A DNA stretch of 32,000 nucleotides. Origin: Deinococcus radiodurans R1 = ATCC 13939 = DSM 20539. GTDB taxonomy: Bacteria > Deinococcota > Deinococci > Deinococcales > Deinococcaceae. Of the stretch, positions 9,535 through 27,587 are shown piece by piece (position 1 is the stretch's first letter; every line of letters begins with the position of its first letter). The position numbers and the translations under genes are program-made. The stretch is taken from NCBI RefSeq assembly GCF_000008565.1, contig NC_000958.1, positions 60,001 to 92,000 of the forward strand. The letters are read 5' to 3'. The notes under the pieces were generated by a model that saw only the letters and a program-made list of their open reading frames with translations, was not told the origin of the DNA and made no database searches.

Positions 9535-9560
9535 GCCGGTCTGCGTGAGCCTGCTTCAGG

Positions 9561-9583: not shown

Positions 9584-9642
9584 ATCTGCTTATCGGGCGC
9601 CCGCCAAGGTTCGGCTGAGATAATCTGAAGGGAGGCGACAGG

Positions 9643-10065
9643 ATGCGGTGGATGGGTGCAGCGGCGTTAACACCAGCGATATTGGCTCTGCTCGGCAGTG
9701 CTCAGGCGACTTGCAGGCTGGAACGTGCGGCCCCTCAGGTGCCGGCGCCGGCCTACAGCGCCCTGGCACCGCTGCGCGCCGCGCTGACCGTTCAGGTCGG
9801 GTGTGAAACGCCCAACGACGAATTTCAACTTTTTCTGTCCGGCGTGCAGGATGCTGGGCAGGCCAGCCCGGTGCTGACCGTTCCTTTTAAGCAGGGCTCG
9901 GCCCTTTTGCGGGCTACTCTTTCCGGAAACCTAAACCAGTTGCGCGGCCAAGTGCTGCGCGGCAGTCAGAATCTGACTTTTCCCCTCGACTTCGCGTCCG
10001 ACCAGTGGATTGAGATCGGCACCTATCAGGCGCAGCTCAGTCTGGTGCTGCTCAATCAGCCCTGA
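9643..10065 (+). CDS. Putative minor fimbrial subunit (SCPU-like)
   Basis: It has a signal peptide (ALLGSAQA/TC), two Cys (TCRLE ... VGCETP) and a C-terminal GTYQAQLSLVL strand resembling SCPU subunits. A GGGAGG Shine-Dalgarno precedes it. Its operon position is between the pilin and the chaperone. Confidence 0.6.
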   Translation: MRWMGAAALTPAILALLGSAQATCRLERAAPQVPAPAYSALAPLRAALTVQVGCETPNDEFQLFLSGVQDAGQASPVLTVPFKQGSALLRATLSGNLNQLRGQVLRGSQNLTFPLDFASDQWIEIGTYQAQLSLVLLNQP

Positions 10066-10106
10066 CCTCTTCAGGACCTTCCCTCAAGCTCAAGGAAACC
10101 GAATCC

Positions 10107-10838: not shown

Positions 10839-13005
10839 GCGGCCTCGGCGCCTTGCGCTGACGCTGGCCCTGGGGCTGGGTGCAGGCCTGGGCGGAGCGC
10901 GGGCGGCCACCTGCGACCTGCCGGAGCAGCTGCTGTCGGTGTCGGTCAACGGGAGCAGCCGGGGGGTGCAGGTGCTGCGGCTGCGCCAGGACGACGCCGG
11001 CGAGGTGCAGGTGCTGCTGCCCGAGGACCTGCTGCGCCCCAGCGAACAGGCCCTGCTGGGCGAGCGGCTGACGTGTGACGGTCAGCCGCTTTTTGCGCCG
11101 GCCCCCGGCGTGCGCGTGCGCTTCAATCCCGGCGAGCAGCAGCTCAGCCTGAGTTTGCCGGCGCGTCAACTCGGCGGGCACGACCTGGACCTCGACCGGC
11201 TGCGGGCCCAGAGTGAGCTGCCCGCACAGCCTTCCTGGGGTGTGGCGTTCGGTGGCAATCTGAACACCGAAGCGCCGCAGTGGAACGGCTTTTCAGTGCG
11301 GGCGGCCCAGGCCTATCTGGGCGTCGGCGGCGTGACCCGGCAGTTCAGTGTCTACGGCGACATGTTCGTGGGGCGCGACTCTCAGGGGGCCTGGCGCTCC
11401 GAGCCACGCGCCGTGCTGCGTTACGCGCTGGGGCCTGGGGCGGTGGTCAGCGCCGTCTGGAACGCCGACCCCGGCCTGAACACCCCCGAATTCAACGAAA
11501 CCGATTTCCGGGGCCTGAGCATCGAAGGCCAGGCCGGGTTCCGCCGCCGCGCCCCCGAGTGGGTGCTTGATTTGCCGCTCGACGCCGAAGTGACCGTGCT
11601 CCTCGACGGCGTGCCGGTCACGACCCGGAGTGTGTCGGCGGGCAGTCTGAATATCCGCAACGTGTGGATCGACAAGGTCGGGACACATACCCTCAAGGCC
11701 GTCATCAGCGACGACAACGGCGTGCGCGACGAAGTACTCGACCTCACCCAGGAAACCTTCGGGCTGCCCCGCGGCGCCCTGGTGTACGCGGCGCGGGCCG
11801 GCACCCAGCGCGGGCAGTGGCTGGTGTCTGGCCGCGCTGCCTATGGCCTGAGCCGCAACGTCACGGTGCAGGGCAGTGCCAGCCTGACGCCCGACTTGCA
11901 GACGGCCAATTTCGGGGTGGAGTATAGCCAGGGCACCTGGAACACCGACCTGGGCCTGCAATACCGCCGTTCGTCGGTCCTTGGGAGCCAGCTCAATGTC
12001 CTGGGGCGGGTGCGGTTCGACCGGGGCAACTGGCAGCTCGGCGGGTTGGTGGTAGTACCCACGCAGTCGTTCGCGGACGGGTCACTCAGCCTGAATGCGA
12101 TTTACCACGTCCGCGACTGGTTCGTGAATACTTCGTACACCCAGGGCTTTTCCGGCAACCAGTGGGCGCTGGCGGCGAACGTGAACCACACCTTCAACAA
12201 TCGCCTCAGCGGCGCCATCTCCGGCGGCGTCGGCTCGGGCGGCTGGCAGGTCGGCGTGCAGTTGGGCTACCTCGTGAACCCACGGCTGCAAACGAGTGCG
12301 GGGGCTATAGCGGGCAGTGCAGGTCTCGGGGGCGCCCTGAACGTGCTGTATACCCCTTCGCCGGCGCACACCTTTGGGGTGGAGGTGGCCACGCCCTTCA
12401 GCGCCGCGCTGCGTTACCGCTACACCCGCGCCGTCGAAGCCCAGTTCGACGTGAGGACCGACGGCTCGGCCCAGGCTTACGCGCGTGGGGCCGTCAATTT
12501 CTCCGGGGGGCTGGTGCGCTTGCAGCCGGCGCTGGCGCAGCGGGCCATCCTGATCCGGACCGGCGTGCCGAATCTGCAACTGCTGGTCAACGGGCAGCAG
12601 CAGGTCGTGACCGACGGCGCGGGCGATGCGCTGATTGCCAACCTGCCCGGCGGCCAGCTCGTCGAAATTGCCGTGAACCTGAATGTCCTGCCGCTGACCG
12701 TCAGTGTGCAGGTCGAGCGCGAACGCCTGATGCCGCCGCTGCTGGGGCTGAGCACCCTGGACTGGCGACAGAACTTCAAGGTGTCGCGCTGGGTGCAGTT
12801 CTCCTGGGAAGATGGCAAACTGGCCGCTGGTGCAGATTTTGTCTCGTCCCAGGGCACCTTCCCGCTGGACGACGAAGGCAACAGCCTGCTGCCCGCGAGT
12901 GCCGCGCCCATTGCCGGGACCCTACGAAGTCAGGACGGCCAGCGCAGCTGCCTGGTCAGGGTGGCGGCGGGCGCAGAGAAGGCGTCCTGTCAGCCGGCCC
13001 CTTGA
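10816..13005 (+). CDS. Fimbrial outer-membrane usher (CsuD-like)
   Basis: About 730-aa protein with a signal peptide (MKRWRCPERPRRLALTLALGLGAGLGGARA) and a Gly/aromatic-rich beta-barrel-like composition. It follows and overlaps the chaperone gene. I prefer the ATG at 10816, preceded by GGGGGAAAAGG, over 10795. The assignment rests mainly on size, composition and operon position. Confidence 0.7.
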   Translation: MKRWRCPERPRRLALTLALGLGAGLGGARAATCDLPEQLLSVSVNGSSRGVQVLRLRQDDAGEVQVLLPEDLLRPSEQALLGERLTCDGQPLFAPAPGVRVRFNPGEQQLSLSLPARQLGGHDLDLDRLRAQSELPAQPSWGVAFGGNLNTEAPQWNGFSVRAAQAYLGVGGVTRQFSVYGDMFVGRDSQGAWRSEPRAVLRYALGPGAVVSAVWNADPGLNTPEFNETDFRGLSIEGQAGFRRRAPEWVLDLPLDAEVTVLLDGVPVTTRSVSAGSLNIRNVWIDKVGTHTLKAVISDDNGVRDEVLDLTQETFGLPRGALVYAARAGTQRGQWLVSGRAAYGLSRNVTVQGSASLTPDLQTANFGVEYSQGTWNTDLGLQYRRSSVLGSQLNVLGRVRFDRGNWQLGGLVVVPTQSFADGSLSLNAIYHVRDWFVNTSYTQGFSGNQWALAANVNHTFNNRLSGAISGGVGSGGWQVGVQLGYLVNPRLQTSAGAIAGSAGLGGALNVLYTPSPAHTFGVEVATPFSAALRYRYTRAVEAQFDVRTDGSAQAYARGAVNFSGGLVRLQPALAQRAILIRTGVPNLQLLVNGQQQVVTDGAGDALIANLPGGQLVEIAVNLNVLPLTVSVQVERERLMPPLLGLSTLDWRQNFKVSRWVQFSWEDGKLAAGADFVSSQGTFPLDDEGNSLLPASAAPIAGTLRSQDGQRSCLVRVAAGAEKASCQPAP

Positions 13006-13009
13006 GGCT

Positions 13010-13336
13010 TCAGTAGAAGACGAAGCCCTCGGCAGCCAGGGCGGCGGACGGTGCGGCCACGTACTCGTTCAGCGTGCCGCCCTGTGGGTTGGCGGTGGCC
13101 CGCTGGAACTGCCACGGAGCCGCCGGGATACGCGCCGCCACCTCGGGGAGGGCCAGCGGGGAGGCCGGCGTGAAGCCCGAGGTACACAGCAGCGTCAGAT
13201 GTGCCTCACTGACCGCCTGCACCTGGCAACTTTCCGCCACGCTGACGCTCAGGTTCAAAGTGACCGAAGCGGCCTGCGCGTGAAAAGCGGTGAGCACCAT
13301 CAACCAGAAGCCAGCCCGTTGTGCAGTCGAGAACAT
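13010..13336 (-). CDS. Small secreted SCPU-like protein, convergent with the usher gene
   Basis: It has a signal peptide (FWLMVLTAFHAQA/AS), then VTLNLSVSVAESCQV ... LLCTSG (a beta-strand-plus-Cys pattern like SCPU subunits). It has a strong GGAGGAG Shine-Dalgarno. Its stop lies only 4 nt from the usher stop. Confidence 0.55.
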   Translation of the reverse strand: MFSTAQRAGFWLMVLTAFHAQAASVTLNLSVSVAESCQVQAVSEAHLTLLCTSGFTPASPLALPEVAARIPAAPWQFQRATANPQGGTLNEYVAAPSAALAAEGFVFY

Positions 13337-13539
13337 GTATGACTCCTCCAGGGGCGGCGCTCGATAGGCCGGCCCCGACTGTGGAGCACGTTAATCGGGC
13401 GAGTCTTTCGGGAAGCTTTCAGGGCGAAGGATGAAGGCCTAAGCCGGGTTCCGAGCGGCTAGTCTTCAGGGATGGGATGCGGAAAACAAGTGACGCAGAC
13501 ATGAGTTGTGCCTTGTCCCAACGGGACCGCAATGGCGAG

Positions 13540-13684: not shown

Positions 13685-16600
13685 TCAGGGCAGCGGTGCC
13701 AGAGCCACGCCGCGCAGGGCGGTATTGGCTTTCGCCGGGCTGAGCAGGGTGGGAGTGCCGCTCAGGGACTTCAAAAAGCCGGAAGTGTCGGTCAGTTTGA
13801 CCAGGCTGCCGGCATTGGTGGCCAGCAGCGTCACGGTATTGCCCTGCTGCACGCCAGCCAGCCCGATATAACTACCGCTGGCAACGCCCGAAGCCACCCA
13901 GGTTCCGTTTTGCAGACTGAATTTTTGCAGGCCGCTCGTGGCGTCGGCAATGTACAGGGTATCCGCACCGGGCAGGCCGTCCAGATCGGCCCAGAAAAAG
14001 CCGTAGCTGTCGCCGGTAACGCTGTCGGACAGACCCGGCAGGCGGCTGACGGTCTGGTTCCCGGTCGTGGGCAGGCCATTTCCTACGCTCAAGAGCCCTT
14101 TCGTGCCGTTGCCACTGCCACTCGACACGTACAGTTGATCGCCGAAGATGCCCAGTTGACGCAGGTTGGACGCGGCGCTGCTGATGCTGAGGCCGCTGCT
14201 GGCGCCCAGCGCGTAGAGCCGCACGCCGCTGTTGCCGCCAGTGACATAAAAACTGCGGCCATCTGTGCTGGCGGCGCTCCGGATATTGTCGCCACTGTAG
14301 GCGTCGGGAAGGGTCGTGGTGGTGTCCACAGTGCCGGCACTGTCCAGACGCCCGATCACGCGAGGTGTGGTCGCACTGTCGCTCGCCTTGACATTCGCCA
14401 GGCCGACGCTGGCCGCGTAGCCGGTCAATACCAGGTAATGAGCGTCCGCCGAGCGCGTCAGCATCCCTTCACTGCTGGCGGTGCCGCTGGCCAGGAGCGG
14501 CCTGTTGCTGCCACTGGTGCTGGTCGGCAGGCTCAGCGTCCGGACCAGCGACCCGTCGTTGGGATTGATGATGTCCACGAAAACGGGCGTGGCGGCGCTC
14601 GTCAGTTTGGCGCTGCCGTCCCCGACGCGGTACACCGCCACGTTGGGCAGGCTGGTCACGGGAGCGCTGACGGTCACGCCCGTGCTGGCGCTCACCGGGG
14701 CGCCGCTGCCGGGCGTGACCGTGGCTGTCAGGGTCACCGTGCCCGCCGCTTCCGCTCGCGCGACGCCGCGCTCGTCCACCGTCAGCTTGCTTGGGTCGCT
14801 GCTGCTCCAGCTGACGTTGACGGCGCAGTTGGGCGGTGACGTGGTGTAGATTGCCTTGAAGGTCTGGGTGCCGCCCACCGGCAGGGTGGAGTTGTCTGGG
14901 GTCACGCTCAGGTTGCTGACGGTGCAGGTCTGGGCCGGCAGGGCACCGACAATCACGGTCTCGGCGCGAAATTTCTGCCAGTCCTGCGCCGGGGCGACCA
15001 GGTCTTTGGCGATCTTGCCGTCACCGTAATACACGCTGTCGCCATTGTCGGTCAGCACCTGCACCGGCTGCCCGGTCAAGGCGTCGCTGTCGGGGTTGCC
15101 CGCAGGCATCGTAACGATGCTTTCCAGGCTGCCGTCCATGCTGGTGGCCAGGGCTTGCAGGTCATTGCGCAGATGCGCCGCGCCGTTGCTCTGGCCGTTC
15201 CACGAGTACAGCGCAAACGAGCTGCCCCCGCTGGCTGGCCCCGCCAGAATCAGGCAGCCCTGATCGTTGCACTTCAGCTCACGGATGCCGCGCCCGCCCA
15301 GGTCGAGTTGCACAGGAGCCCCGAAGGTGGCGGTGCGGGCCGTTCCCGTGACCAGCTCGGTGAAGTTGGTGACGGGAACGATCAACGCAGCGTTGCGCGT
15401 GCCGGACGGTTCCAGCGGCGCTCGGAATCCCAGGTAGGCCACGCTGCTGCCCGGTTTGAAGGCCAGACCTTCGATGTTGTACCCCACGCCGCCGTCGGCC
15501 TCAGGAATGACGCCACTGGCGGCGCTGGCCCCCAGTCCCAGGGCGTTGCCGTTGGCCCGGTCCCAGGCGAGCAGATCGTCGCGTAGATGATCGTAAGACC
15601 CCACGAAGTTCAGGGTGGCCGCCGCGCCCGAGCCCTGAAGGTCGGTCGCAAACACCCGGTTGCGATTGGGACGCGCCTTACCGCTCTTGCTGTTGCTTTG
15701 CGACCCCATCCAGAAAATCCGGTTGCCCAGCCGGGCGCTGGCTTCCAGGTCCATCTCGGGGTTGGCGGTGTCGGTCAGGTTCATCAGGGAACTGAAGTCG
15801 AACTGGGCCACCGGCGCACTGGACGTCGCCTGGGGATAAAGACTCAGCACATTGAACTCGTCGTCGGCCACCACCATGTACCCGTCGCCGACTTCCTGAG
15901 CGCTCGAAGCGTTGCTGGCCCCACTGAAAAAGCGGGTGCTAGACGTTGTGCCCGCCGCCTGACTCGCCGCGTAGTGCACCACGTAGCTGGCGGAGGCGCG
16001 GTCGCCGTCGGCAACGGTAACGGTGATATCGGCGTACCCGGTCTGCCGGGGGCTGATCTTGAGGAGACGGGTCTTTCCGCTGCCGCTGAGGGTGGCCGCC
16101 CCGACGCTGGGGTTGCTGCTGGTCGCGGTCACCGTCAGGCCCGCCGCGTCGGCGTCGCTGTCTGCCACCGTAAAGGTCAGGCCCTGGACACTGGCTGGAT
16201 CCGTCGGATCGCCGAGAGTGCCGCTGACATACGCGGGACTGCTCGCCGGCAACTTCACCTTCGAGTTGGCGCCGGGCGTCGGCGTCAGGGTCACCGGCAC
16301 GTCCACGCTGCCGACCGCCGTGAACACCACCGTGTAAAAGAACGGGTCGGTCGTGCCTGAGGTGGCCGGCATCTGCGTGGCAAAGGTCACGTCGGTGCTG
16401 GCGCCCGGGGCCAGAACGCCGCTGGTTTGCCAGCCGCTGGGGGAGAGGCCGCCCCTGCCCAGTTGCAAGCCCGCCGGGAGGGCGATGGTCTGTCCGGCGG
16501 TGTCGATGGGCTGATAAGGGGTGGCGGCTGTGTCCACCTGACCGCTCGCGTCACGCGCCTGCCCTGGCACCAGCGAGGCCGCCTGATCCGCGGCGTCTGA

Positions 16601-17071
16601 GCCGTCAAAATGCTTGACGTCCTTGAAATAGGTCGCGCCGACCGTAGGAGAGATGGTTGGCGTCGCGCCCGCCACCGCGTCGGTATCCAGGGGAACGAGT
16701 CCCAGATTGGTGATGGTCTGGGCCGACGTGTTCGTGACGTGGTAGGTCACGCGAACGAACCACTGTCCGTCCTGATGCAGCGTCCCCGAGGAGACGTAGC
16801 TGAAGGCCAGCTGGTTGTCCACCAAGCGGGTGGCCTGCGCGCTCAACTGGCCGGGCACCGAAATCGAGGACGTGACCGGGCCGCCCTGACCGTCGCGGCG
16901 GAATTGAAGTTCGTACAGTTGCCCCACCCGTGTTCTGGCCTGGGGAGCCGGACTGGCCGCTGAATGTTCCGGTTTGGCCGGCGAGCTGGGCAGTGGTTGT
17001 CCGCAGCCGGCCATCATCAGGCTGAGCATCAGGGGCAGGGCACACAGGGCGAGCTTCGGGGGTTTGGGCAT
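13685..17071 (-). CDS. Large multi-domain surface/secreted lipoprotein: shared N-terminal domain, phytase-like/beta-propeller-like region, Big_2 Ig-like domain and a C-terminal beta-propeller-like region
   Basis: I prefer the start at ATG 17071 (AAGGAG 8 nt upstream) over the track TTG at 17122. It has a lipobox, LSLMMAG/C. The N-terminal roughly 210 aa are paralogous to the N-termini of 18759-21962 and 22675-25335 (motifs PLDTD, F-K-x-V-x-H-F-D-G-S-D-A, DPFFYTVVFTAV). The Big_2-like segment is VSNLSVTPDNSTLPVGGTQTFKAIY...VTLTATV. Confidence 0.85.
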   Translation of the reverse strand: MPKPPKLALCALPLMLSLMMAGCGQPLPSSPAKPEHSAASPAPQARTRVGQLYELQFRRDGQGGPVTSSISVPGQLSAQATRLVDNQLAFSYVSSGTLHQDGQWFVRVTYHVTNTSAQTITNLGLVPLDTDAVAGATPTISPTVGATYFKDVKHFDGSDAADQAASLVPGQARDASGQVDTAATPYQPIDTAGQTIALPAGLQLGRGGLSPSGWQTSGVLAPGASTDVTFATQMPATSGTTDPFFYTVVFTAVGSVDVPVTLTPTPGANSKVKLPASSPAYVSGTLGDPTDPASVQGLTFTVADSDADAAGLTVTATSSNPSVGAATLSGSGKTRLLKISPRQTGYADITVTVADGDRASASYVVHYAASQAAGTTSSTRFFSGASNASSAQEVGDGYMVVADDEFNVLSLYPQATSSAPVAQFDFSSLMNLTDTANPEMDLEASARLGNRIFWMGSQSNSKSGKARPNRNRVFATDLQGSGAAATLNFVGSYDHLRDDLLAWDRANGNALGLGASAASGVIPEADGGVGYNIEGLAFKPGSSVAYLGFRAPLEPSGTRNAALIVPVTNFTELVTGTARTATFGAPVQLDLGGRGIRELKCNDQGCLILAGPASGGSSFALYSWNGQSNGAAHLRNDLQALATSMDGSLESIVTMPAGNPDSDALTGQPVQVLTDNGDSVYYGDGKIAKDLVAPAQDWQKFRAETVIVGALPAQTCTVSNLSVTPDNSTLPVGGTQTFKAIYTTSPPNCAVNVSWSSSDPSKLTVDERGVARAEAAGTVTLTATVTPGSGAPVSASTGVTVSAPVTSLPNVAVYRVGDGSAKLTSAATPVFVDIINPNDGSLVRTLSLPTSTSGSNRPLLASGTASSEGMLTRSADAHYLVLTGYAASVGLANVKASDSATTPRVIGRLDSAGTVDTTTTLPDAYSGDNIRSAASTDGRSFYVTGGNSGVRLYALGASSGLSISSAASNLRQLGIFGDQLYVSSGSGNGTKGLLSVGNGLPTTGNQTVSRLPGLSDSVTGDSYGFFWADLDGLPGADTLYIADATSGLQKFSLQNGTWVASGVASGSYIGLAGVQQGNTVTLLATNAGSLVKLTDTSGFLKSLSGTPTLLSPAKANTALRGVALAPLP

Positions 17072-17181: not shown

Positions 17182-18498
17182 TTATTCAGGCACCCGGAAG
17201 GACTCGGTAAACCGCTGACGCACCAGCGGCTCGCCGTAGCTCTCCATCACGCCGCGGTCGTCTTCGACCCAGGCGTGCCCCGTCAGGCCGGTCGGGGTCC
17301 GGGCCACGCCGCTGACGAATACGGCGGGGTGGCCGTAGCGGCGCAGTGCCCGGTAGGTTGCCGTCGCTCGCGGGACGCACACGCCGCGCCGGGACTGCCG
17401 GGGATAGAGCAGCCGCGTCCACCAGTTCACCGCGCCGATCAGGTCGTTCTGGGCACTCAGGCTGAGGCGGCCTGAGACCGGCTGGCCCCAGGGCCGCAGG
17501 GCCGCGCGGGGGTCTCCGCCCTGTCGTCCGACCCGGGCCGCCGCATACACGTCCGGCAGCAGCCGCAGCATCCAGACGGCGCGGCGGGGGGCGTTGCGGA
17601 GCCGGGCACGCCAGAGCAGAGCACGGTGGTCTCGTCCGTCGCGCCGCGCGGCGTCCAGGAGGACAGGCAAGCGACCCTGCAAGGCGCTCGCCAACTCCGG
17701 GCCAGCGGGCTGACAGACCCTGAGAAAGGCCGCCCAGGTCTGGCTGACCCCGAGTTCCTGCGCCCGCCGCGCCAGCGCCTCATCGGTCAACCGGTGCCGT
17801 TCGCGCAACACCTGCAAGTCAGGAACATCGGCGGGCTTCAGTCCCCCCGCGTCGCCCCCCCAGCAGCGGCTGACGGCCAGCGTCAGCACCGCGCGGTCGG
17901 CGGGGGAGGGGAGCAAGACAGGCACGCCGGCCCAATCGGTCGGCACCGCCGAGGCCCACATCTGCCGGGTGAGCGCCTGCATCCTTTCTTGCGGCCCTAC
18001 CTCCCAGGTCGTGACGAAGCGGTGAACGTCGAGCTTGGCCTGCCCACTCGGGCTCACGAGGTGCGCGCATTCATGCGTCCAGGTGGACGGACTGGCGTGC
18101 TGACCGTCACTGCGCCAGCCGTGGGCCAGCGCGAGGTGAACGGCGCGGCTGATGAGGTCGGGGTCATTCGGCAGCAGCAGGTCCAAGTCGCCGTAAAAGC
18201 GCTCGGCGGGGGTCGCGTAGTCGAATTCGGCCAGCGCGAAGCCCTTGAACAGCAGGGCCGGCACCCCGGCATCGGCCCAGAGCTGCAACAGGGGCCGGAC
18301 CTCGCTTTTGATGAGGGCGTGGCGCGCGGCGAGCTGCACGGCGTCCATTTTCAGCGCACCGCGCAGTGGGTGGCCCTGCGGCAAGCGCGGGCGGAGGTAC
18401 CCCCCCAGATGGAGCTGGCGCAGGGTGGGGAGGTCGTCCGCGGTGACCTCGCTGGGCGCAGCGAAGGTCCGTCGCAGCACTTCGGACAGGGAATCCAT
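17182..18498 (-). CDS. Fusion protein: NTP_transf_5 (uncharacterised nucleotidyltransferase) domain plus lasso-peptide B2-type transglutaminase-like cysteine protease domain
   Basis: The N-terminal part has AGVPALLFKGFALAEFDYATPAERFYGDLDLLLPNDPD, the K-G ... R ... D-x-D-L-L pattern of NTP_transf_5. The C-terminal roughly 90 aa, RRGVCVPRATATYRALRRYGHPAVFVSGVARTPTGLTGHAWVEDDRGV, shows the Cys ... His-A-W-V-E ... Asp pattern of B2 leader peptidases. The longest ORF reaches 18606, but its first codons overlap the RBS and start of the divergent peptide gene, so ATG 18498 (MDSLSEVLRR...) is preferred. Confidence 0.85.
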   Translation of the reverse strand: MDSLSEVLRRTFAAPSEVTADDLPTLRQLHLGGYLRPRLPQGHPLRGALKMDAVQLAARHALIKSEVRPLLQLWADAGVPALLFKGFALAEFDYATPAERFYGDLDLLLPNDPDLISRAVHLALAHGWRSDGQHASPSTWTHECAHLVSPSGQAKLDVHRFVTTWEVGPQERMQALTRQMWASAVPTDWAGVPVLLPSPADRAVLTLAVSRCWGGDAGGLKPADVPDLQVLRERHRLTDEALARRAQELGVSQTWAAFLRVCQPAGPELASALQGRLPVLLDAARRDGRDHRALLWRARLRNAPRRAVWMLRLLPDVYAAARVGRQGGDPRAALRPWGQPVSGRLSLSAQNDLIGAVNWWTRLLYPRQSRRGVCVPRATATYRALRRYGHPAVFVSGVARTPTGLTGHAWVEDDRGVMESYGEPLVRQRFTESFRVPE

Positions 18499-18591: not shown

Positions 18592-18597
18592 AAGGAG
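18592..18597 (+). promoter_or_regulatory. Shine-Dalgarno (AAGGAG) of the 54-aa peptide gene
   Basis: AAGGAG lies 7 nt upstream of the ATG at 18605. Confidence 0.7.
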
Positions 18598-18604
18598 TTT
18601 ATAC

Positions 18605-18769
18605 ATGTCAGAACATTGTCAGAAGACTGCTGTTAAGCCTGAACCCCGCCCCTACCAGGCCCCTGCCGTGCAGGACCTCGGCCCCTGGAAGGCCATGACC
18701 CTGATTTACAGCCTGCCCATCGGCCCCGGCGGCTCCCGTCCTACTGGTGGTAACAGCAATGTCTGGTAA
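18605..18769 (+). CDS. 54-aa precursor-like peptide with a lasso-type leader motif (paralogue 1)
   Basis: It is not in the ORF track because it is under 60 aa. The sequence is MSEHCQKTAVKPEPRPYQAPAVQDLGPWKAMTLIYSLPIGPGGSRPTGGNSNVW*. It has a strong RBS. A 27-residue block is shared with the peptide at 22448-22633, with many synonymous codon differences (Ser AGC vs TCT, Leu CTG vs TTG, Gly GGC vs GGT/GGG). The block fits Y-x2-P-x-[LIV]-x3-G-x5-T-x. Confidence 0.8.
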   Translation: MSEHCQKTAVKPEPRPYQAPAVQDLGPWKAMTLIYSLPIGPGGSRPTGGNSNVW

Positions 18770-21700
18770 GCGCGCCGCCAATGCCCTCTTGCTGGCTGGC
18801 CTTCTGGCCCTGAGTGCCTGCGGAAGCCAGCAGCCTGCGGGCACAGGCGCGGCGGTGCCTGCCCCAGGGCCCGTGACCAGCGGTACTTCCCGCAGCAGCC
18901 TCGGCGTGTACCAGCTCAGCCTCAGCGGGGCGGGCAGCGCCATCAAGCAGGCCAGCGTGCAGCGCTTGGGCGCTCAGGCGACTGAAGTGGGCGGCCTGAG
19001 CTTCAAGAGCAACAACTACGGCTACTACGTCGACAGCTCGAACAACACCCTGCGGATGTGGGCGACGTTCGACGTGACCAACACCAGTGACCAGCCCCTC
19101 GCCGCGCCGACCTTCATTCCGGTCGACACCGAAGGCGCGGGCGGGACCATCGGCACCACGGCGTTCAAGAACGTGCGCTACTTCGACGGCAGCGATGCTT
19201 CGAGCCGCGCGCCGCTGCTGGCCTTCGACTCGTCGAACGACCCCAAGACGGCGGTCAAGACTCAGCTGCTCCGTGACCTCGACAGCGGCAGCGTGCAGGT
19301 CAACCTGCCTGCGGGCCTGCAACTCGCCGGCACCTCGCACACCGGCTGGAAGATGGGCGCCCTGCCGGCGGGCGCGACCGGGCAGGTCACCCTCGCCGCG
19401 AGCATTCCAGCGGCCAGCAACTCTCAGGACAACCCCTTTTCGTTCGACCTGGTCTTCACCGTGGCCGACAACGTGCCCAGCACCACGCTGACCAACATCG
19501 GTGCGGTTCAGGGCCAGACCCCCGGCGGCGACCGGCCCGCAGCCTTGACCGGCGCGCAGACCATCGAAGGCGTCGTGACAGCGGTCGAGCCTGGTCTGAG
19601 CGGCTTTTTCGTGCAGGAAGAGGGCATCGACGCCGACAGGGACGAGACCACCAGCGACGGCCTGTTCGTCTACTGCGCGGCGAGTTGCCCGGCGCTCAGC
19701 GCGGGCGACCGCGTGCGGGTCAGCGGCACGGTGGCCGAATACGGCGGCGCCACCCAGATGACGGCGCCCACCGTGACCAAACTGCTTTCCGGCCTGGCGC
19801 TGCCGCCTGCCGCCGAGCTGAAGCTGCCGCTCGACAAGACGCAACAGGAGCGTTATGAGGGCATGCGCGTGCGCTTCCCCGAAACGCTGACCATCACCAA
19901 CAACTACACCTATGGCCGCTACGGGCAACTCGACCTATCGAACGCCGGGCGCATGTTCAATCCCACCAACGGGAACGCCAGCGCCAGCGAGCAGAGTACC
20001 ATCACACTCGATGACGGCGTCAGCGCACAAAACCCGCTGGACCTGAACTACCTCAGCGCCGAGCGGACCCGCCGCACGGGCGACACGGTCACCGGCCTGA
20101 GCGGCGTGTGGCATTCGGTTGCCAATCAGCCCATGCTGGAGCCGGAGGGAGCGGTCGAGTTCGTCTCCGCCAACAGCCGCGCCAGCAACGCCCTGCCGCA
20201 TGACGTCGGTGGCAGCCTGCGGGTGGGCGGTGCCAACGTCCTGAACTACTTCACGACTTACGGCGGCAGCACGGACCGCGGCGCAAACAACGCCGGTGAG
20301 CTGGCCCGGCAACGCGCCAAGATGGCGACCACGCTGACCACCCTGAACGCCGACGTGCTGTCGCTGATGGAAGTGCAGAACAATGGTGATACGGCGCTCA
20401 ACGACCTTGTCGCGGCGCTCAATGAGAAAGCCGGCGCCGGGACCTACGCCGCCGTGACGACGGGCTCCGTCGGTACCGACGCCATCAAAGTCGCCATCAT
20501 CTACAAGCCGTCTAAGGTCACGCCGGTCGGCCAGTTCATGACCGACAACAACTCTGTCTTCTCGCGCCCGCCCGTCGCCCAGACGTTCCGTGACAAGACC
20601 ACGGGCGGCGTCTTCAGCGTGATCGCCAACCACCTCAAGAGCAAAGGCAGCTGCCCCACGTCCGGCGACGTGGACACGGGCCAGGGCTGCTGGAATCAAC
20701 TGCGCGTGCGGCAGGCTCAGGCGCTGCTGGGCTTCGTCGATACCGTGAAGCAAAAAAGCGGCGACCAGGACGTCTTGCTGCTGGGGGATTTCAATGCCTA
20801 CGGCGCGGAAGACCCCATCAAAGTGCTGCAAGGCGGCGGATTCGAGAGCCTGAACCTGCGTATTCCCGCAGAAGACCGTTACAGCTACCAGTTCAATGGC
20901 CTGTTCGGTTACCTTGACCACGCGCTGGCGAGCCAGAACCTCAGCGCTCAAGTGAGCGGCATCACCGAGTGGCACGTCAACAGCGACGAGCCGGTTATCG
21001 CCGACTACAACACCGAGTTCAAGAAGGTTGCGGGCTGCACTGGAACCAACTGCACGGGCATCGATCTGTTCGACCCGACCAATCCCTTCCGCGCCAGCGA
21101 CCACGACCCGGTGCTTGTCGGCCTGAACCTGACCGCCGACGCAGGGACCACTCCCACTCCGGCACCGACCACGGCGCTGAGCGCCAACCCCAGCGCCCTG
21201 ACGGTGACGGCGGGCGGCGCAGCCGTGAGCAGCACCCTGACGACCAGCACCCAGAACTACAGTGGCGCCGACTTCACCGTCAGCACCCAGAACAGCGCGG
21301 GTCTGACGGTCGCGCCCTCGGCGACTTCGGTGAGCCCCAACGGGACGTTCACCGTGAGCGTCACGGCGCCTGCGGGCACGGCAGCCGGAACGTACCCGGT
21401 GACGGTGACGACCACAGGTGCAGGTGGCCTGACGGCGACTGCGACCCTCAACGTCACGGTGAGCGTAGGCGGTACTCCTCCCCCCAGCTCGACTGGCAGT
21501 GATCTGATTATCAGCGAGTACGTCGAAGGAACCAGTAATAACAAAGCATTGGAGTTCTACAATCCGACAGCAAACACTCTTGATTTGAGTGCTTATACGG
21601 TCGAACTGTATGCCAACGGCGCGACGAAGGCCACAAATACACAGAAGCTCACTGGGAGCCTGGCTCCTGGCGCTGTCTTGGTCCTGGTCAACGGTTCTGC

Positions 21701-21962
21701 TGTACCTGAGCTCAAAGCCAGGGGAACTGTCAGTAGTGTGACCAATTTCAATGGTGATGACGCCATTGTGCTGAAAAAGAGTGGCGTGGTCATCGATTCG
21801 TTTGGTCAGGTCGGGGTACAGAGCATGTGGGGCGCGGACGTTACTCTGCGCCGTAAGAGTGGCATCGTTTCAGGCGATAGCAACCCGAATGATCCCTTTA
21901 GCGCAGCGACCGAGTGGGACAGTTTTCCAGTTGACACTTTCGATGGACTTGGAAGCCGCTAA
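18759..21962 (+). CDS. ExeM/NucH-type extracellular nuclease lipoprotein (shared N-terminal domain, OB-like domain, endonuclease/exonuclease/phosphatase domain, Ig-like repeats, lamin-tail domain)
   Basis: It has a lipobox, LLALSA/C. The NucH-type segment is IEGVVTAVEPGLSGFFVQEEG...DGLFVY...GDRVRVSGTVAEYGGATQM. EEP motifs are GGANVLNYF, SLMEVQNN, LLGDFNAY, YLDHALAS and RASDHDPVLVGL. The C-terminal lamin-tail domain is DLIISEYVEGTSNNKALEFYNPT. The ATG at 18759 (track GTG 18747) overlaps the upstream peptide gene by 11 nt. Confidence 0.9.
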   Translation: MSGKRAANALLLAGLLALSACGSQQPAGTGAAVPAPGPVTSGTSRSSLGVYQLSLSGAGSAIKQASVQRLGAQATEVGGLSFKSNNYGYYVDSSNNTLRMWATFDVTNTSDQPLAAPTFIPVDTEGAGGTIGTTAFKNVRYFDGSDASSRAPLLAFDSSNDPKTAVKTQLLRDLDSGSVQVNLPAGLQLAGTSHTGWKMGALPAGATGQVTLAASIPAASNSQDNPFSFDLVFTVADNVPSTTLTNIGAVQGQTPGGDRPAALTGAQTIEGVVTAVEPGLSGFFVQEEGIDADRDETTSDGLFVYCAASCPALSAGDRVRVSGTVAEYGGATQMTAPTVTKLLSGLALPPAAELKLPLDKTQQERYEGMRVRFPETLTITNNYTYGRYGQLDLSNAGRMFNPTNGNASASEQSTITLDDGVSAQNPLDLNYLSAERTRRTGDTVTGLSGVWHSVANQPMLEPEGAVEFVSANSRASNALPHDVGGSLRVGGANVLNYFTTYGGSTDRGANNAGELARQRAKMATTLTTLNADVLSLMEVQNNGDTALNDLVAALNEKAGAGTYAAVTTGSVGTDAIKVAIIYKPSKVTPVGQFMTDNNSVFSRPPVAQTFRDKTTGGVFSVIANHLKSKGSCPTSGDVDTGQGCWNQLRVRQAQALLGFVDTVKQKSGDQDVLLLGDFNAYGAEDPIKVLQGGGFESLNLRIPAEDRYSYQFNGLFGYLDHALASQNLSAQVSGITEWHVNSDEPVIADYNTEFKKVAGCTGTNCTGIDLFDPTNPFRASDHDPVLVGLNLTADAGTTPTPAPTTALSANPSALTVTAGGAAVSSTLTTSTQNYSGADFTVSTQNSAGLTVAPSATSVSPNGTFTVSVTAPAGTAAGTYPVTVTTTGAGGLTATATLNVTVSVGGTPPPSSTGSDLIISEYVEGTSNNKALEFYNPTANTLDLSAYTVELYANGATKATNTQKLTGSLAPGAVLVLVNGSAVPELKARGTVSSVTNFNGDDAIVLKKSGVVIDSFGQVGVQSMWGADVTLRRKSGIVSGDSNPNDPFSAATEWDSFPVDTFDGLGSR

Positions 21963-22447: not shown

Positions 22448-22633
22448 ATGCAAATAAGTGAAGCTAAGCCGCAAGCAAACTTCTCAGAGGAAGCTGAGAA
22501 AACCAGTCTTGCCAGTAAGTACGAAGCCCCTCAAATAAAGGATCTGGGCAGCTGGAAAACCATGACCTTGCTTTACTCTCTCCCTATCGGCCCTGGTGGG
22601 AGAAGCACACATCAAGACGGCCCATTGTATTAA
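22448..22633 (+). CDS. 61-aa precursor-like peptide with a lasso-type leader motif (paralogue 2)
   Basis: The sequence is MQISEAKPQANFSEEAEKTSLASKYEAPQIKDLGSWKTMTLLYSLPIGPGGRSTHQDGPLY*. It is the in-frame ATG portion of track ORF 22268-22633. It shares the block Y-[QE]-A-P-x-[VI]-x-D-L-G-x-W-K-x-M-T-L-[IL]-Y-S-L-P-I-G-P-G-G with the peptide at 18605-18769. Its RBS is weak. Confidence 0.7.
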   Translation: MQISEAKPQANFSEEAEKTSLASKYEAPQIKDLGSWKTMTLLYSLPIGPGGRSTHQDGPLY

Positions 22634-22674: not shown

Positions 22675-25335
22675 ATGAAAGTGTCCAGATCTTTAGTTCT
22701 TTTGGGTCTTCTGACGTTGGCTGCCTGCGGTTCTACCCCTGGCAACACTTCTCCCCAGCCTTCGCCGATCGTAGCTCCTGCAAGGCAGTTACAGAGCTTT
22801 GGATTGTATGAATTGAGTGTCAATGGCGCTACGACTGCGGCGCCTGAGAGCAGAATTTTCAGGACTGGTCTGAGCTCTCAAACTAACGATATTCAAGGGC
22901 TTAAATTTACTCCTTTGTCGACGGGAACATACACCGATGAGTTGAGCCGCACACGTTATTTGCGCGCTTCGTTTAAGGTGAGTAACGAAACTGGACAACC
23001 CTTAACGGTTCCCACCTATGTCCCTGTCGATACGGATGGAAACGACGCTACTGTGGGGGCAACTCCATTTAAAGCGGTGCAGTACTTTGACGGGAGCGAT
23101 GCCAGCTCAAGAGCCTTAGAATTGCAGCTGGATACAGCACATCGGTTTAATAGTGCTACTGGCGCCAATGAAATAGATCTGGACGCTACCCCCCTAGTGA
23201 CCAAGCTTGATACCCGTGATCTGGTCATAAACCCGCCGCCTGGGACCACAATCGCACAGGTCTTTCATCAGGGCTGGCAAGGGCGACAGTTGGCTCCTGG
23301 AGGAACCCAGGTCGTCACTTTCGCTGCCCGACTGCCTATGGCTGCTGATTCAAAGCTAGATCCCTTTAGATTTAAGCTGATGTTTGCAGTGACAGATAAT
23401 CCTGCGCCTTTGCCTGATGATCAGATAGCACCAACAGTATCACTGACATTAGATCCCATCGAGTTGACGTCGGCAGGCTCCGTCACTTTTCGCGCCGCCG
23501 CTGAAGACAATGTCGGCATCCGGGACGTTACTTTTTATGATGGTGACAAACTCCTAGGGACTGTTACCGAGGCGCCTTATGAGTGGAAGTCCGCTTATAC
23601 AGCTGCCGATAACGGAGAGCACGTCATTCGTGCGGTTGCTACGGACACCAGTGGAAATACCGCGCAAACGACCAGTAGACTAAATATTAAAATCTCTACA
23701 GCAAATGTTCCATTTATTGGGAGTGGCCCGGCTGGTTTGATGGTCGATCTGATTCGTTCGAACCGTGGCGAAGGAGTCAGCGATTCTACAGTTCGTATCT
23801 ATCATAGTGGTGATCGCACAAAGGTGTTGGCTGAGACTCAAACTGATAAGAGTGGTTTTACTCAATTTCTGAATATTCCAGAAGGAACCTACGACTTAGT
23901 TTTCAGTAAAGCTAATGCGGCAGGTTCGGAATTTAATGGTGCAGTTGCAAAAGCGGGCGTCAATCAACGCCTCAAGATTGCCCAGTTTGATGCTCAGAAC
24001 CCTACAGCCGGGAAAGCAACGGCCAAGCTGGCTGTCCTGACGCCTACTGCCCTTGCTGCGGATGGAACTGCTGTGGATTGGAAAGTGCTGACTCCCGGCA
24101 CTGTAATGAACAACGATATTCAACTGAGGGCTTACACAACCGCTGAAAACCCAGCTCCACTTCAGCTCAAGTACCTGATGTTTTCGGTCGTGAATTTCGA
24201 TGCCACTGGGCAGATGACCGAACTGCGCAGTGCGCTGGCCAGTATTGATGCTGGCAAAGTGAATCCGGGCATGGAAAGTCAGGACAGCGGTCTGATGACG
24301 CTCGACACAGCCGGGCTTCAAGGCGATATTTATGTACAGGTCTCTTCGCTGGATTTTAATAACAACCGTTCGGCTTATTTGATCCCGGTTCGCCTTGAGC
24401 GGAGCAGTGCGCCCGGTGCTGTGACAGCGCCCACTGGAGTAAGCGCTATCGCCTATACCAACGGTGAACGCATCAACTACATTTATGGAGTCACTGACCC
24501 CAGCACTCAAGGAGAAGGTAAAAATATTTTCCCGGACACGAACAGCTGGGTGAGCGTGTCCTGGGATATGCCGAGTACCACTGCTGGCTTGACTGGCTTC
24601 CGCGTTCTGCGCGCGGTGGCGCCGCAAGGTCCATACAGTGAAGTGGCGTTTGCTGGTGTAGCGCAGTGCCGCACTTCGACCAAGCGTTGCACGGCCAGCG
24701 ATAATACTGCCACTCTGCAAGTCGGTCAGGACTATTACTACCGGGTTAAAGCTATCGGAAGTAACGAAGCCTTGAGTGCTACGCCATCACAGGCCAGCAC
24801 GCGGATTTTGCCTCCGTTTAAGCCACAGCTCCTCAGTCCGGGTTCGGAGCAGACGGATGTCAGTCTCCTCCCTGAGTACACGTTTAAGACCAATGCTTTT
24901 GAGGGTGGCGCCACGGGGCTGCGCTTTGATCTGCGCGTCAGCGACGCTTTTACTTCCGTCGGCAATACGGACGCGCCGCCCCTGCGCATTGTGGGCCAGG
25001 GCGGGACCTTCAAGGTGATCGGCGCCGATAACGACACCCGGGATTACGCCAAGTGGGTAACCTATGACGTGGCGAGTGACGTGGTCAAAGTCCCTCACGA
25101 CCTCACCCGGGTGCGCTCTGGCCTGGCGCCACAGCCGCTCCAGACGAATCGGCGGTACTCGTGGATGCTTCACCGCGCTTATACCTACCGTCTCCTTGAT
25201 CCAACTTTGCCGGAATCGACCACCAACCCTGTCGTGGCTTACTCGGTGTATAGCGACCCGGACACCACCAAGATTGTTCCCGGCGGCGTCACGCAGAGTG
25301 TCAGCACTGTCTACCACTTCATTACCCGGCCCTGA
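22675..25335 (+). CDS. 886-aa multi-domain lipoprotein (shared N-terminal domain, bacterial Ig-like domain, carboxypeptidase-regulatory-like domain, FN3-like domain, unknown C-terminal region)
   Basis: It has a lipobox, LLTLAA/C, and a GAGGA Shine-Dalgarno. Its N-terminal domain is paralogous to the other two lipoproteins (PVDTDG, F-K-A-V-Q-Y-F-D-G-S-D-A-S-S-R-A, DPFRFKLMFAVTDN). The Ig-like segment is APTVSLTLDP...AAAEDNVGIRDVTFYDGDKLLGT...PYEW...VIRAVATDTSGNT. Confidence 0.85.
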   Translation: MKVSRSLVLLGLLTLAACGSTPGNTSPQPSPIVAPARQLQSFGLYELSVNGATTAAPESRIFRTGLSSQTNDIQGLKFTPLSTGTYTDELSRTRYLRASFKVSNETGQPLTVPTYVPVDTDGNDATVGATPFKAVQYFDGSDASSRALELQLDTAHRFNSATGANEIDLDATPLVTKLDTRDLVINPPPGTTIAQVFHQGWQGRQLAPGGTQVVTFAARLPMAADSKLDPFRFKLMFAVTDNPAPLPDDQIAPTVSLTLDPIELTSAGSVTFRAAAEDNVGIRDVTFYDGDKLLGTVTEAPYEWKSAYTAADNGEHVIRAVATDTSGNTAQTTSRLNIKISTANVPFIGSGPAGLMVDLIRSNRGEGVSDSTVRIYHSGDRTKVLAETQTDKSGFTQFLNIPEGTYDLVFSKANAAGSEFNGAVAKAGVNQRLKIAQFDAQNPTAGKATAKLAVLTPTALAADGTAVDWKVLTPGTVMNNDIQLRAYTTAENPAPLQLKYLMFSVVNFDATGQMTELRSALASIDAGKVNPGMESQDSGLMTLDTAGLQGDIYVQVSSLDFNNNRSAYLIPVRLERSSAPGAVTAPTGVSAIAYTNGERINYIYGVTDPSTQGEGKNIFPDTNSWVSVSWDMPSTTAGLTGFRVLRAVAPQGPYSEVAFAGVAQCRTSTKRCTASDNTATLQVGQDYYYRVKAIGSNEALSATPSQASTRILPPFKPQLLSPGSEQTDVSLLPEYTFKTNAFEGGATGLRFDLRVSDAFTSVGNTDAPPLRIVGQGGTFKVIGADNDTRDYAKWVTYDVASDVVKVPHDLTRVRSGLAPQPLQTNRRYSWMLHRAYTYRLLDPTLPESTTNPVVAYSVYSDPDTTKIVPGGVTQSVSTVYHFITRP

Positions 25336-25352: not shown

Positions 25353-27587
25353 ATGAAAAGACTTTCTCTCGCGGCGCTCAGTCTTACTGTTCTTCTGGCG
25401 GCTTGCCAGCAGCAGAGCACCGTTGTCAATCCCCGCCCACCAGTGACCTCTTCACCGATGCAGGCCGGTGGCATTCCTACCCCTGACATTGATCCAGCGC
25501 GCATTATCCTCGACCCAAACAGCGGGGCCCAGTATGTCAGCGATCAATTGGTCGTCGGCCTGGGCGGGCTGGACTCCACAACCCTGGCAGCCCAGCTGGG
25601 GGCGACCGTCATAGACCGTTTGCCGCAGCTTGACGCTGTGGTGCTTCACCTCAGTGATGGAAGTGCTTTGCAAAAAGCCAGGCAGCTCAATGAAGAAGGC
25701 CGTGTCACGTTCGCAGCTCCCCAGCAAATTATGCAGATGGAACCCTATACGAAAAGTATTCGGGAGCCTGCATTATCGCCGCTGGCGGTCAATCAAGTGT
25801 TCGACGCTCTGCCGCAGTACGCATTGGATAGCGAGCATCTCAATGCCAAAGCAGCCTGGGACGCCGGCTTTACGGGACGTGGCGTGACTGTCGGAGTGAT
25901 TGACGATCCTGTTGATGTTTCACACCCTGACTTGCGAGCCAACTGGGCTGGGAAAGCGTACGATCCGAAGGCCGACAAGACCTATACGACAGTGCAAAGT
26001 TGGCTTGATGCGATTGATGCTTTCGGTTCAGTGCCGATGCCTGTAGACAATCAGGTGGACGAGAACATTGAGCACGGTACTGCCGTCACCTCCACTATCG
26101 CTGCCGCTCGTGATGGGCGAGGGGTCGTTGGAGTGGCGCCGGATGCCAAGTACCTCACGGCGGCCATGTTTCAGCCGGGGAGCGTCGGCTCTGCTGGTGT
26201 GGCGAAGGCCATCTTATGGATGGTAGATAATGGAGCAAAAGTCCTGAACAATTCCTGGGGCGGCGCTGGCTTTGACCCCCTGATCAAGGCTGCAATGGAC
26301 TACGCTCTGGAACGAAACGTCACTGTGGTAGTTTCCGCTGGCAATGAATCGCGTGAATATTATCAGCGGCCAGCGCTTTTTGCGGGGGTTATTCCTTCTG
26401 CGGCCCTGGCTGTCAATAATACTAAAGCGAGTTTCTCTTCTTTCGGGCGCCATATCAGTGTGGCTGCGCCTGGGACAGACATCCTCATGGCCTCACCGCT
26501 GTTCATTAATGACGATGGAACACGCAAATTGGGTGCCACTCCTCCAGATGGCAGTGGCTACGTCCTGATGAGTGGAACTTCCTTCTCTGGACCTTATACG
26601 GCAGCTACGGCAGCTCTGATTCTAGGTGCCCACCCAGAGCTCGACCCCTATCAAGTGCGGCGGCTGATGGAAGAGACGGCTGACGGAAGCGTCGGCGAAA
26701 ACCCCAATGGTTTTGACCGGGGGACAGGGTATGGCCGCATTCAACTGGGAGAACTGGCTCAACGTCTCCAAAGCGGTCCTATGCCGGCAAAAGGCGGCGC
26801 CCTTAAGGTACTGGTGCAATTTAAGAAAAGCGACGGCACCTTCGTGACTCAGACCCAGCCTTCAGACGTGATTATTGAAAAAGACGGTGAAAATGGGGCG
26901 ATTTACGGGGCGCAGACCAATGCCAAAGGTTTGGTCCAGTTCGCGGCGATGGCGCCTGGAACCTATACTCTTCGGGTGGGTGGCCCTGATCTGAAGGCTG
27001 ACACAGCGCTAAAGGAGCGAGGCAGTTATACGGGCAAAGTCACTATCACGTCCGGTACGACGTTGGCTGACGCCGAACCGATCGTGGTGACACTGGATAA
27101 AGGGTTCTATGAGCCCCCACCTCCTGTGGTCGATCCCTATGAGCCGAACGACAGTCTTGAAACGGCAACTCAAATTTCGATTGGTATGCGCACGCAGCCG
27201 GCGCTCATTTATAGGGAGAGCTGCTCTTCTTCCTGTACGCCAGTCAATGGAGATGTCGACTTTTACAAATTCAGCGGTACTGCTGGGCAAACTGTAGAAG
27301 TGGCTCTCTTTGATAAATATCACCCCACCGAAAAGATAGGCAATATGTGGGGAGTAATATACATTCGTGATTCAACCGGCAATCTTCTTAAGGATTCCGC
27401 TGGGAAAGTCATCCAACCGGGAATCGTTGACAACAAATTTACAGCTAAGCTGCCTACAGATGGGACCTACTATTTACAGGCTGGAACCTATCTCCATCTG
27501 AATCCGACCCAGGGAGAAAAGCCTTACACAGGAGGCTTTACAAATAGTAAGGATAACAAATATTTTATAGAACTGAAACTCAAATGA
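25353..27587 (+). CDS. S8 (subtilisin-family) serine protease lipoprotein with C-terminal PPC (pre-peptidase C-terminal) domain
   Basis: It has a lipobox, VLLAA/C, and an AAGGAG Shine-Dalgarno. Catalytic motifs are VGVIDDPVD (Asp), EHGTAVTSTIAA (His), NNSWGG and MSGTSFSGPYTAATAALIL (Ser). The PPC-like tail is YEPNDSLETAT...GDVDFYKFSGTAGQTVEV. Confidence 0.9.
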   Translation: MKRLSLAALSLTVLLAACQQQSTVVNPRPPVTSSPMQAGGIPTPDIDPARIILDPNSGAQYVSDQLVVGLGGLDSTTLAAQLGATVIDRLPQLDAVVLHLSDGSALQKARQLNEEGRVTFAAPQQIMQMEPYTKSIREPALSPLAVNQVFDALPQYALDSEHLNAKAAWDAGFTGRGVTVGVIDDPVDVSHPDLRANWAGKAYDPKADKTYTTVQSWLDAIDAFGSVPMPVDNQVDENIEHGTAVTSTIAAARDGRGVVGVAPDAKYLTAAMFQPGSVGSAGVAKAILWMVDNGAKVLNNSWGGAGFDPLIKAAMDYALERNVTVVVSAGNESREYYQRPALFAGVIPSAALAVNNTKASFSSFGRHISVAAPGTDILMASPLFINDDGTRKLGATPPDGSGYVLMSGTSFSGPYTAATAALILGAHPELDPYQVRRLMEETADGSVGENPNGFDRGTGYGRIQLGELAQRLQSGPMPAKGGALKVLVQFKKSDGTFVTQTQPSDVIIEKDGENGAIYGAQTNAKGLVQFAAMAPGTYTLRVGGPDLKADTALKERGSYTGKVTITSGTTLADAEPIVVTLDKGFYEPPPPVVDPYEPNDSLETATQISIGMRTQPALIYRESCSSSCTPVNGDVDFYKFSGTAGQTVEVALFDKYHPTEKIGNMWGVIYIRDSTGNLLKDSAGKVIQPGIVDNKFTAKLPTDGTYYLQAGTYLHLNPTQGEKPYTGGFTNSKDNKYFIELKLK

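Follow-up and report, generated by a model that had tools for sequence, protein, structure and literature searches.

The window analysed here, a stretch of 32,000 nucleotides, holds two paralogous small genes on the Deinococcus radiodurans R1 megaplasmid pMP1, which the region matches at 100% identity. We consider it quite probable that both, peptide 1 and peptide 2, encode precursors of a linear offshoot of the lasso peptide pathway, which works without a cyclase, is processed in the way proposed below and serves lipoproteins. The coding status of the gene, the leader motif, the set of enzymes, the absence of a cyclase, the invariance of one Ser/Thr and the linkage of the genes can all be read directly from the data. 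A literature search found no paper on a cyclase-free lasso-like system in Deinococcus, and the apparent tie of such peptide genes to a surface lipoprotein family including the D. radiodurans extracellular nuclease is new. The features are collected in Table 1.

Table 1. Positions of the peptide genes, candidate processing enzymes and lipoprotein genes in the window
Feature	Position	Strand	Details
DUF3616/Big_2 lipoprotein, directly downstream of fusion enzyme gene	13685-17071	-	BLAST against other module carriers
Module in DUF3616/Big_2 lipoprotein (third carrier)	~16301-16927	-	module HMM E=9e-63
Fusion enzyme, 438 aa: NTP_transf_5 nucleotidyltransferase (N-terminal) and lasso B2 transglutaminase-fold cysteine protease (C-terminal)	17182-18498	-	PF14907 E=4e-23, PF13471 E=3e-18
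Shine-Dalgarno AAGGAG of peptide 1	18592-18597	+	7 nt upstream of ATG, read from the sequence
Precursor peptide 1 gene, 54 aa	18605-18769	+	translation MSEHCQKTAVKPEPRPYQAPAVQDLGPWKAMTLIYSLPIGPGGSRPTGGNSNVW; family profile, motif statistics, codon test
Peptide 1, predicted leader	aa 1-33, 18605-18703	+	lasso-type motif
Peptide 1, predicted core	aa 34-54, 18704-18766	+	IYSLPIGPGGSRPTGGNSNVW
Peptide 1 Ser36 (core Ser3)	18710-18712	+	invariant residue
ExeM/NucH extracellular nuclease lipoprotein	18759-21962	+	NF033681 570 bits; lipobox LSAC
Module in nuclease	~18888-19496	+	module HMM E=9e-70
Precursor peptide 2 (paralogue), 61 aa	22448-22633	+	translation; P0001 and P0005 elsewhere
Peptide 2, predicted leader	aa 1-41, 22448-22570	+	
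Peptide 2, predicted core	22571-22630	+	LYSLPIGPGGRSTHQDGPLY
DRA0282-like Ig-domain lipoprotein, downstream of peptide 2	22675-25335	+	NF052428 503 bits, below the 800-bit cutoff
Module in DRA0282-like lipoprotein	~22786-23409	+	module HMM E=2e-80
S8 subtilase lipoprotein, DR_A0283-like, no module	25353-27587	+	Pfam; conserved partner of DRA0282-like gene
HprK/ScmC-like P-loop kinase	27623-28486	-	weak TIGR04355, TIGR04352 and TIGR04249 matches
PqqD-type RiPP recognition element (RRE, B1-like)	28483-28734	-	PF05402 E=1.3e-14

Two small genes with a lasso-type leader

The reading frame of peptide 1 translates exactly as given in a preliminary description made from the sequence, and the strong, well-spaced ribosome-binding site and the paralogue reported there are both present. 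Within the 27-residue central block, 20 of 27 residues are identical between the two peptides; only by including conservative changes does one arrive at the 23 retained residues claimed earlier. For ten of the identical residues the codons differ between the two copies, Ser for instance being AGC in one and TCT in the other, and by the Nei-Gojobori method the pair has dN 0.23 and dS 1.26 (dN/dS ~0.18), in agreement with the protein-level selection that had been proposed. Peptide 1 is a real coding gene under purifying selection.

The claim that the gene was unlisted holds in part, as some RefSeq pMP1 records carry it as the hypothetical protein WP_166466122.1 and it is missing from others. Peptide 2 is absent from the gene table of the one RefSeq record examined. 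Neither peptide matches a family in NCBIfam or Pfam, and scans for promoters, terminators and Rfam families around both genes gave nothing useful. In the accessible part of the supplementary files of a D. radiodurans small-ORF peptidomics study peptide 1 is not listed, and this counts against our main reading. A near-identical relative of peptide 2 (P0001) and an orthologue (P0005) are found elsewhere with the same gene pair downstream.

The leader of peptide 1 reads Y17-x2-P20-x-V22-x3-G26-x5-T32-L33, and the spacing of the lasso leader motif, described earlier as exact, is indeed so in both peptides. The pattern Y-x2-P-x-[LVI]-x3-G-x5-T-x has three matches in the six frames of the window, while base-shuffled windows average 0.075 matches per window. 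Two of the three are the peptides. The remaining one, YGHPAVFVSGVARTPTG, lies on the minus strand in the B2 domain within 17182-18498 and is judged a chance match because its Tyr and Thr are not conserved among orthologues. The predicted core of peptide 1 contains no Asp or Glu; it ends in Trp, and that of peptide 2 in Tyr.

Enzymes encoded in the window

The gene of the fusion enzyme is divergent from peptide 1. Its product scores 43 bits against the lasso_biosyn_B2 model NF033537 (cutoff 33) and is named 'lasso peptide biosynthesis B2 protein' in RefSeq. Seven orthologues share an invariant G-D-x-D with a downstream Asp in the nucleotidyltransferase half and an invariant Cys and His in the B2 half. 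The start at 18498 follows RefSeq and the alignment of orthologues, and a divergent intergenic region of 106 bp results. In the ORF list the gene is extended to an ATG at 18606, and this ATG and the start of peptide 1 share the palindrome CATG (18604-18607).

For the RRE, the closest solved structures are the lasso B1 proteins TfuB1 and TbiB1, and its gene overlaps the start of the kinase gene by 4 nt. The kinase reaches 32 bits against HprK-related models having cutoffs of 200, which counts against the main reading; its P-loop GxSGxGKST is invariant in orthologues. On the whole, the enzyme set looks intact, judging from the catalytic motifs kept in orthologues. Beside the RRE gene, a 113-aa ORF (28825-29166, minus strand) resembles FAD-dependent monooxygenases at their C-terminal end only (FAD_binding_3 279-346); it looks truncated, consistent with a rearrangement at the edge of the cassette.

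No Asn-synthetase-like cyclase is present among the ORFs of the window, and the gene tables for about 15 related loci list none either. Two components of the linear polyphosphorylated peptide (LPP) system compared below were also looked for. [quoted passage not shown] Only in D. wulumuqiensis does an ABC transporter adjoin the nuclease gene.

Sequence features of the peptide family

The preliminary description had proposed a search for homologues and their neighbours. Our initial search returned nine peptide relatives, and tblastn against plasmids gave hits in D. wulumuqiensis, D. psychrotolerans, D. ficus (two), D. gobiensis, QL22 (two) and KNUC1210. Scanning species-representative genomes with a peptide pattern, which was probably too narrow, yielded one Deinococcus MAG only. 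A profile search of 1.84 billion representatives (50% identity clustering) gave 203 matches at E<=0.001, nearly all of 50-90 aa. Overall, the family comprises about 200 relatives, and the small ORF is conserved at orthologous loci. The peptide gene is uncalled in L026, L027 and D. ficus pDFI1, where only the profile detected it.

Among 163 small family proteins, 158 carry [YFW]-x2-P-x-[LVIM]-x3-G-x-[WF]-x3-T-x at exact spacing. All 150 distinct leaders have Pro(-14), Gly(-8) and Thr(-2), and 149 have Leu(-1). Cleavage of peptide 1 after its MTL, as predicted earlier, is plausible given the invariant Thr(-2). On the core side, 144 distinct sequences were compared. Position 3 is Ser or Thr in 143 of them, and Pro occupies position 5 in 133 and position 8 in 118. 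Asp or Glu occurs at positions 7-9 in five cores, and 54 have no acidic residue anywhere. The residues at position 1 are Gln, Ile, Val and Leu, with Ala in 11 of 144, and Gly, Ser and Cys never occur there; the C-terminal residue is mostly Phe, Ala, Gly, Tyr or Trp. Core length ranges from 8 residues (e.g. QQSVPIFP) to 48. The essential part appears, from this conservation, to be the block x-x-[ST]-[VIL]-P-I-G-P rather than the variable tail. Core Ser3, corresponding to Ser36 of peptide 1, is the likely site of modification, a residue not singled out in the preliminary description.

A few members deviate. In Deinococcus sp. KNUC1210 one peptide (L029 4519-4866) has Ile in place of Thr(-2) (…SWQTVILLVSIPMGPGNF…), and it may be a decaying copy or have a variant cleavage site. 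The long proteins P0017 (1239 aa) and P0037 (1829 aa) match the P-I-G-P-G part of the profile in 10-18 repeats and are probably unrelated Pro/Gly-rich repeat proteins. In an 'LTLQQS' subfamily from lineages of 69-71% GC (L023 6872-7961, the contig of P0033, and L021), the peptide gene is divergent from an ECF sigma factor gene, and in one case it stands after a Ser/Thr kinase with TPR repeats; these neighbours are hints of dedicated regulation.

The cassette in other genomes

Peptide, fusion enzyme, RRE and kinase are found together without a cyclase in a Deinococcus MAG (L001), in metagenome contigs (L002), and in D. wulumuqiensis, D. psychrotolerans and QL22. The cassette is also present in distant lineages of 69% GC (L024, L026 and L027), with enzymes 35-44% identical. 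Taken together, the arrangement recurs in L001, L002, L014, L019, L020, L024, L026 and L027, and the kinase gene lies within the cassette in L001, L002, L019, L024, L026 and L027. At least 25 named Deinococcus species encode the PF14907+PF13471 fusion, usually under the label 'lasso peptide biosynthesis B2 protein'. The enzymes adjoin only one peptide copy per genome, the remaining copies being far away; even the copies distant from the enzymes retain Thr(-2), the Tyr and Pro of the leader and core Ser3, therefore all copies are likely still substrates.

In other genomes the gene order is compact: fusion enzyme, RRE, kinase, peptide, nuclease. In the window, a segment at 22-28 kb holding peptide 2, the DRA0282-like gene and the S8 subtilase gene separates peptide 1 and the nuclease gene from the RRE and kinase genes, and its GC is 0.45-0.58 against 0.65-0.70 elsewhere. 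Because the cassette is contiguous in other genomes, the D. radiodurans locus looks like a cassette split by insertion. Two further regions of the window are described here for completeness. A lower-GC stretch at 4248-8919 carries a transposase cluster with an HTH + DDE_3 pair (IS630-like) and three DDE_Tnp_1 genes. At 9058-13342, small uncharacterised ORFs lie on either side of the genes for a PapD-like chaperone (10107-10838) and a protein with a weak likeness to ushers (10795-13005), and this may be a chaperone-usher-type surface fibre locus.

Lipoproteins downstream of the peptides

The TAA stop of peptide 1 (18767-18769) lies 11 nt within the nuclease gene, whose ATG is at 18759; the coordinates were read directly and RefSeq has the same nuclease start, confirming the overlap reported earlier. 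The overlap recurs at orthologous loci, being 11 nt in L002 and L010/L011 and 1 nt in L001 and L019. The coupling to the nuclease proposed in the preliminary description stands in this respect; what has to be widened is the partner, which is not the nuclease as such but an N-terminal domain common to many lipoproteins. The window nuclease is, by inference, DR_B0067, an extracellular nuclease that was the subject of PMC3554781. In D. radiodurans, DR_A0282 has DR_B0068 as its homologue, and each such gene is then followed by a DR_A0283-type subtilase (PMC6300522); this DR_B0068/subtilase pair matches the two genes behind peptide 2 (22675-25335 and 25353-27587).

The genes that follow the peptides vary. 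They encode ExeM/NucH nucleases, DRA0282-like Ig proteins with the subtilase, beta-helix proteins followed by 'tail fibre' proteins, trypsin-domain proteins and others. A peptide specific to the nuclease is rejected because the same family precedes these unrelated effector domains. All-against-all BLAST shows that the downstream proteins have a region of about 200 aa in common right behind the lipoprotein signal peptide, here called the module. Other carriers include DUF3616 and IPT/TIG lipoproteins. The module HMM matches the gene immediately 3' of the peptide at 18 of about 20 loci (E 1e-26 to 1e-81), distant lineages included; the loci without it downstream are L027, where the peptide precedes an enzyme gene, and one short contig. 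Against a generous background of ~0.8% of genes, the module frequency on the KNUC1210 plasmids, this linkage has a binomial P of ~1e-35, with loci that are not fully independent. In the reverse direction, one of five module genes found independently of the peptide has a family peptide upstream, namely the copy with Ile(-2). This counts against the main reading, and a strict one-to-one pairing of peptide and module is rejected by it. A word-indexed search with the module gave four matches only, and the module has no match in Pfam or among PDB sequences. AlphaFold2 models it as an all-beta sandwich (pLDDT 69, pTM 0.71), and the predicted structure has no significant structural neighbour.

Because the peptide genes directly precede the lipoprotein genes, and in the nuclease case overlap, the product would be made together with the lipoproteins, and it probably serves those bearing the module, for example as a ligand, anchor or maturation factor. 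A cytoplasmic product has to be set against lipoproteins exported by Sec, since an exporter is not conserved and most of the signal peptides are without a twin-arginine; this again counts against the main reading. A more specific proposal, which we offer as possible but doubtful, is that the module, as borne by Deinococcus surface lipoproteins (among them the nuclease and the DR_A0282-type proteins associated with the S-layer), has a dedicated partner in the mature phospho- (or phospho-glyco/nucleotidyl-) peptide. If true, the RiPP would localise, anchor or activate surface proteins and would not be an antibiotic or signal.

Proposed pathway and alternative explanations

From homology and conservation, each chemical step, the order of the steps and the link to the lipoprotein domain can be proposed as follows. 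The PqqD-type RRE would bind the leader via Y17-x-x-P20. The HprK-like kinase would then phosphorylate the invariant Ser36, possibly several times, and the nucleotidyltransferase half of the fusion enzyme could extend or decorate the Ser36 phosphate. The B2 half would cleave after Thr32-Leu33, and the released product would be a short linear modified peptide starting I-Y-pS-L-P-I-G-P-G-G. Polyphosphorylation of core Ser3 is suggested by analogy with the LPP system, its support here being the Ser/Thr of 143 of the 144 cores, and the physical fusion of nucleotidyltransferase and B2 domains would fit a coupling of modification to cleavage. The phosphate or nucleotidyl/hexosyl-phosphate adducts anticipated in the preliminary description fit the adjoining kinase and nucleotidyltransferase as well as the published LPP system.

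That the peptides are true lasso precursors with a cyclase encoded elsewhere in the genome is what the exact leader motif, the adjoining lasso-type B1 and B2 proteins and the RefSeq label of the fusion enzyme would lead one to expect. No cyclase accompanies the cassette in the window or in the related loci, however, and the cores are of the wrong kind: that of peptide 1 lacks Asp/Glu, the family rarely has an acidic residue at positions 7-9 and often has none at all, and position 1 is never Gly, Ser or Cys. Because cores may be as short as 8 residues and, with five exceptions among 144, are without Asp/Glu at positions 7-9, a lasso macrolactam is impossible on them. We therefore hold this explanation to be very improbable and agree with the earlier view that peptide 1 is not a lasso substrate. 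It is extremely improbable that the ORF is a chance one and not a gene, as its small size and patchy annotation might suggest, given the family of about 200 members, the purifying selection and the strong Shine-Dalgarno sequence.

The placement of the peptides leaves room for two other readings. One is an upstream regulatory ORF, in which translation, perhaps with slowing of the ribosome on P-I-G-P-G-G, controls the lipoprotein gene and the peptide itself has no role. The constant position directly 5' of module-bearing genes, the Pro/Gly-rich nature of the conserved block and the stop/start overlap kept in nuclease-type loci (11 nt in three lineages, 1 nt in two) would all be expected from it, but it leaves unexplained both the exact motif for RRE binding and B2 cleavage and the co-occurrence with RRE, kinase and B2-nucleotidyltransferase across distant lineages. 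Moreover, in L027 the peptide gene precedes an enzyme gene and not a lipoprotein gene, and in operons of other types 40-270 nt separate the peptide gene from the following one, too long a distance for coupling. We regard it as rather unlikely in this exclusive form, and a regulatory role may exist in addition to the main mechanism. The other reading takes the product as an unmodified small protein, for instance a chaperone or inhibitor of the shared lipoprotein domain, whose likeness to lasso leaders is a relic; it draws on the tight linkage to the module and on the peptide copies that lie distant from the enzymes. Precursor genes far from their enzymes are common among RiPPs, and the processing motif and core Ser3 are invariant in those distant copies too, which makes a relic quite unlikely.

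The linear modified peptide, our preferred reading, would mean that the module of lasso leader, RRE and B2 found a further use in the making of linear modified peptides. It links a RiPP pathway with the long-known surface nuclease and envelope proteins of D. radiodurans, and Ser36 offers a concrete, testable site and substrate in a genetically tractable organism. In addition, the analysis flags about 200 small genes that are unannotated or 'hypothetical', a widespread lipoprotein domain, and enzymes whose present annotation as lasso biosynthesis proteins is wrong.

Comparison with known systems

Compared with a lasso biosynthetic gene cluster, the system here shares the leader motif, the RRE (B1) and B2, and it lacks the cyclase and the Asp/Glu at positions 7-9. 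The paeninodin/pseudomycoidin type of lasso peptide reportedly follows the same YxxP...T-x leader logic, and is said to have a cyclase, a threaded lasso and a kinase that targets the C-terminal Ser. Unlike that type, the Deinococcus system has neither a cyclase nor an acidic residue as ring acceptor, and its cores usually end in an aromatic residue (not in Ser in peptides 1 and 2). Common to both are a B1 RRE, a B2 protease and tailoring by an HprK-like kinase and a nucleotidyltransferase (PMC13381572). Haft's 'HPr-rel-A system' and SynChlorMet (TIGR04352/04353/04355; ScmC/ScmD) are alike in combining a PqqD-family chaperone with an HprK-like P-loop protein. The window proteins are nevertheless not members of these systems, because they score far below the family cutoffs, and no precursor of the peptide 1 type is described for them.

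The closest comparison is with the LPPs of Bacillota, made by LppA/B/K/N/S/D (Popov et al., Nat Commun 2026, PMC13381572). There, the kinase is HprK-like and depends on the RRE; it polyphosphorylates a linear peptide whose leader carries YxxP, and the site was mapped by experiment to core Ser3. Cleavage requires that phosphorylation has come first and is inefficient otherwise, and activity of the NTP transferase could not be demonstrated (PMC13381572), which counts against the main reading here. Both systems combine a discrete lasso-type RRE with an HprK-like kinase and an NTP transferase and are without a macrolactam cyclase, and in both the precursor has an N-terminal YxxPx[VL] leader, a variable C-terminus and a Ser at position 3 past the cut, which here is set by the lasso rule, one residue after Thr. 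With the LPP consensus YxxPxVLxHQxIxFET-xxS the peptides have YxxPx[VL] and core Ser3 in common, whereas their central part is LGxWxxxTL.

There are also differences. As leader peptidase the present cassette has a B2 cysteine protease, fused to the NTP transferase, in place of the SipW-like signal peptidase of LPPs, and the MsbA-like exporter of the LPP cluster has no counterpart in the Deinococcus cassette. The peptides of the present family retain the lasso spacing throughout the leader, with Gly(-8), Trp(-6) and Thr(-2)-Leu(-1), and have their own core block x-x-S-[VIL]-P-I-G-P in cores down to 8 residues. Their genes are tied to lipoprotein genes, in contrast to the capsule loci of LPPs. 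LPPs are described as restricted to Bacillota (PMC13381572), while the hosts here are Deinococcus and high-GC lineages, and the system would represent a second branch of the lasso pathway without a cyclase, derived independently and found outside Bacillota.
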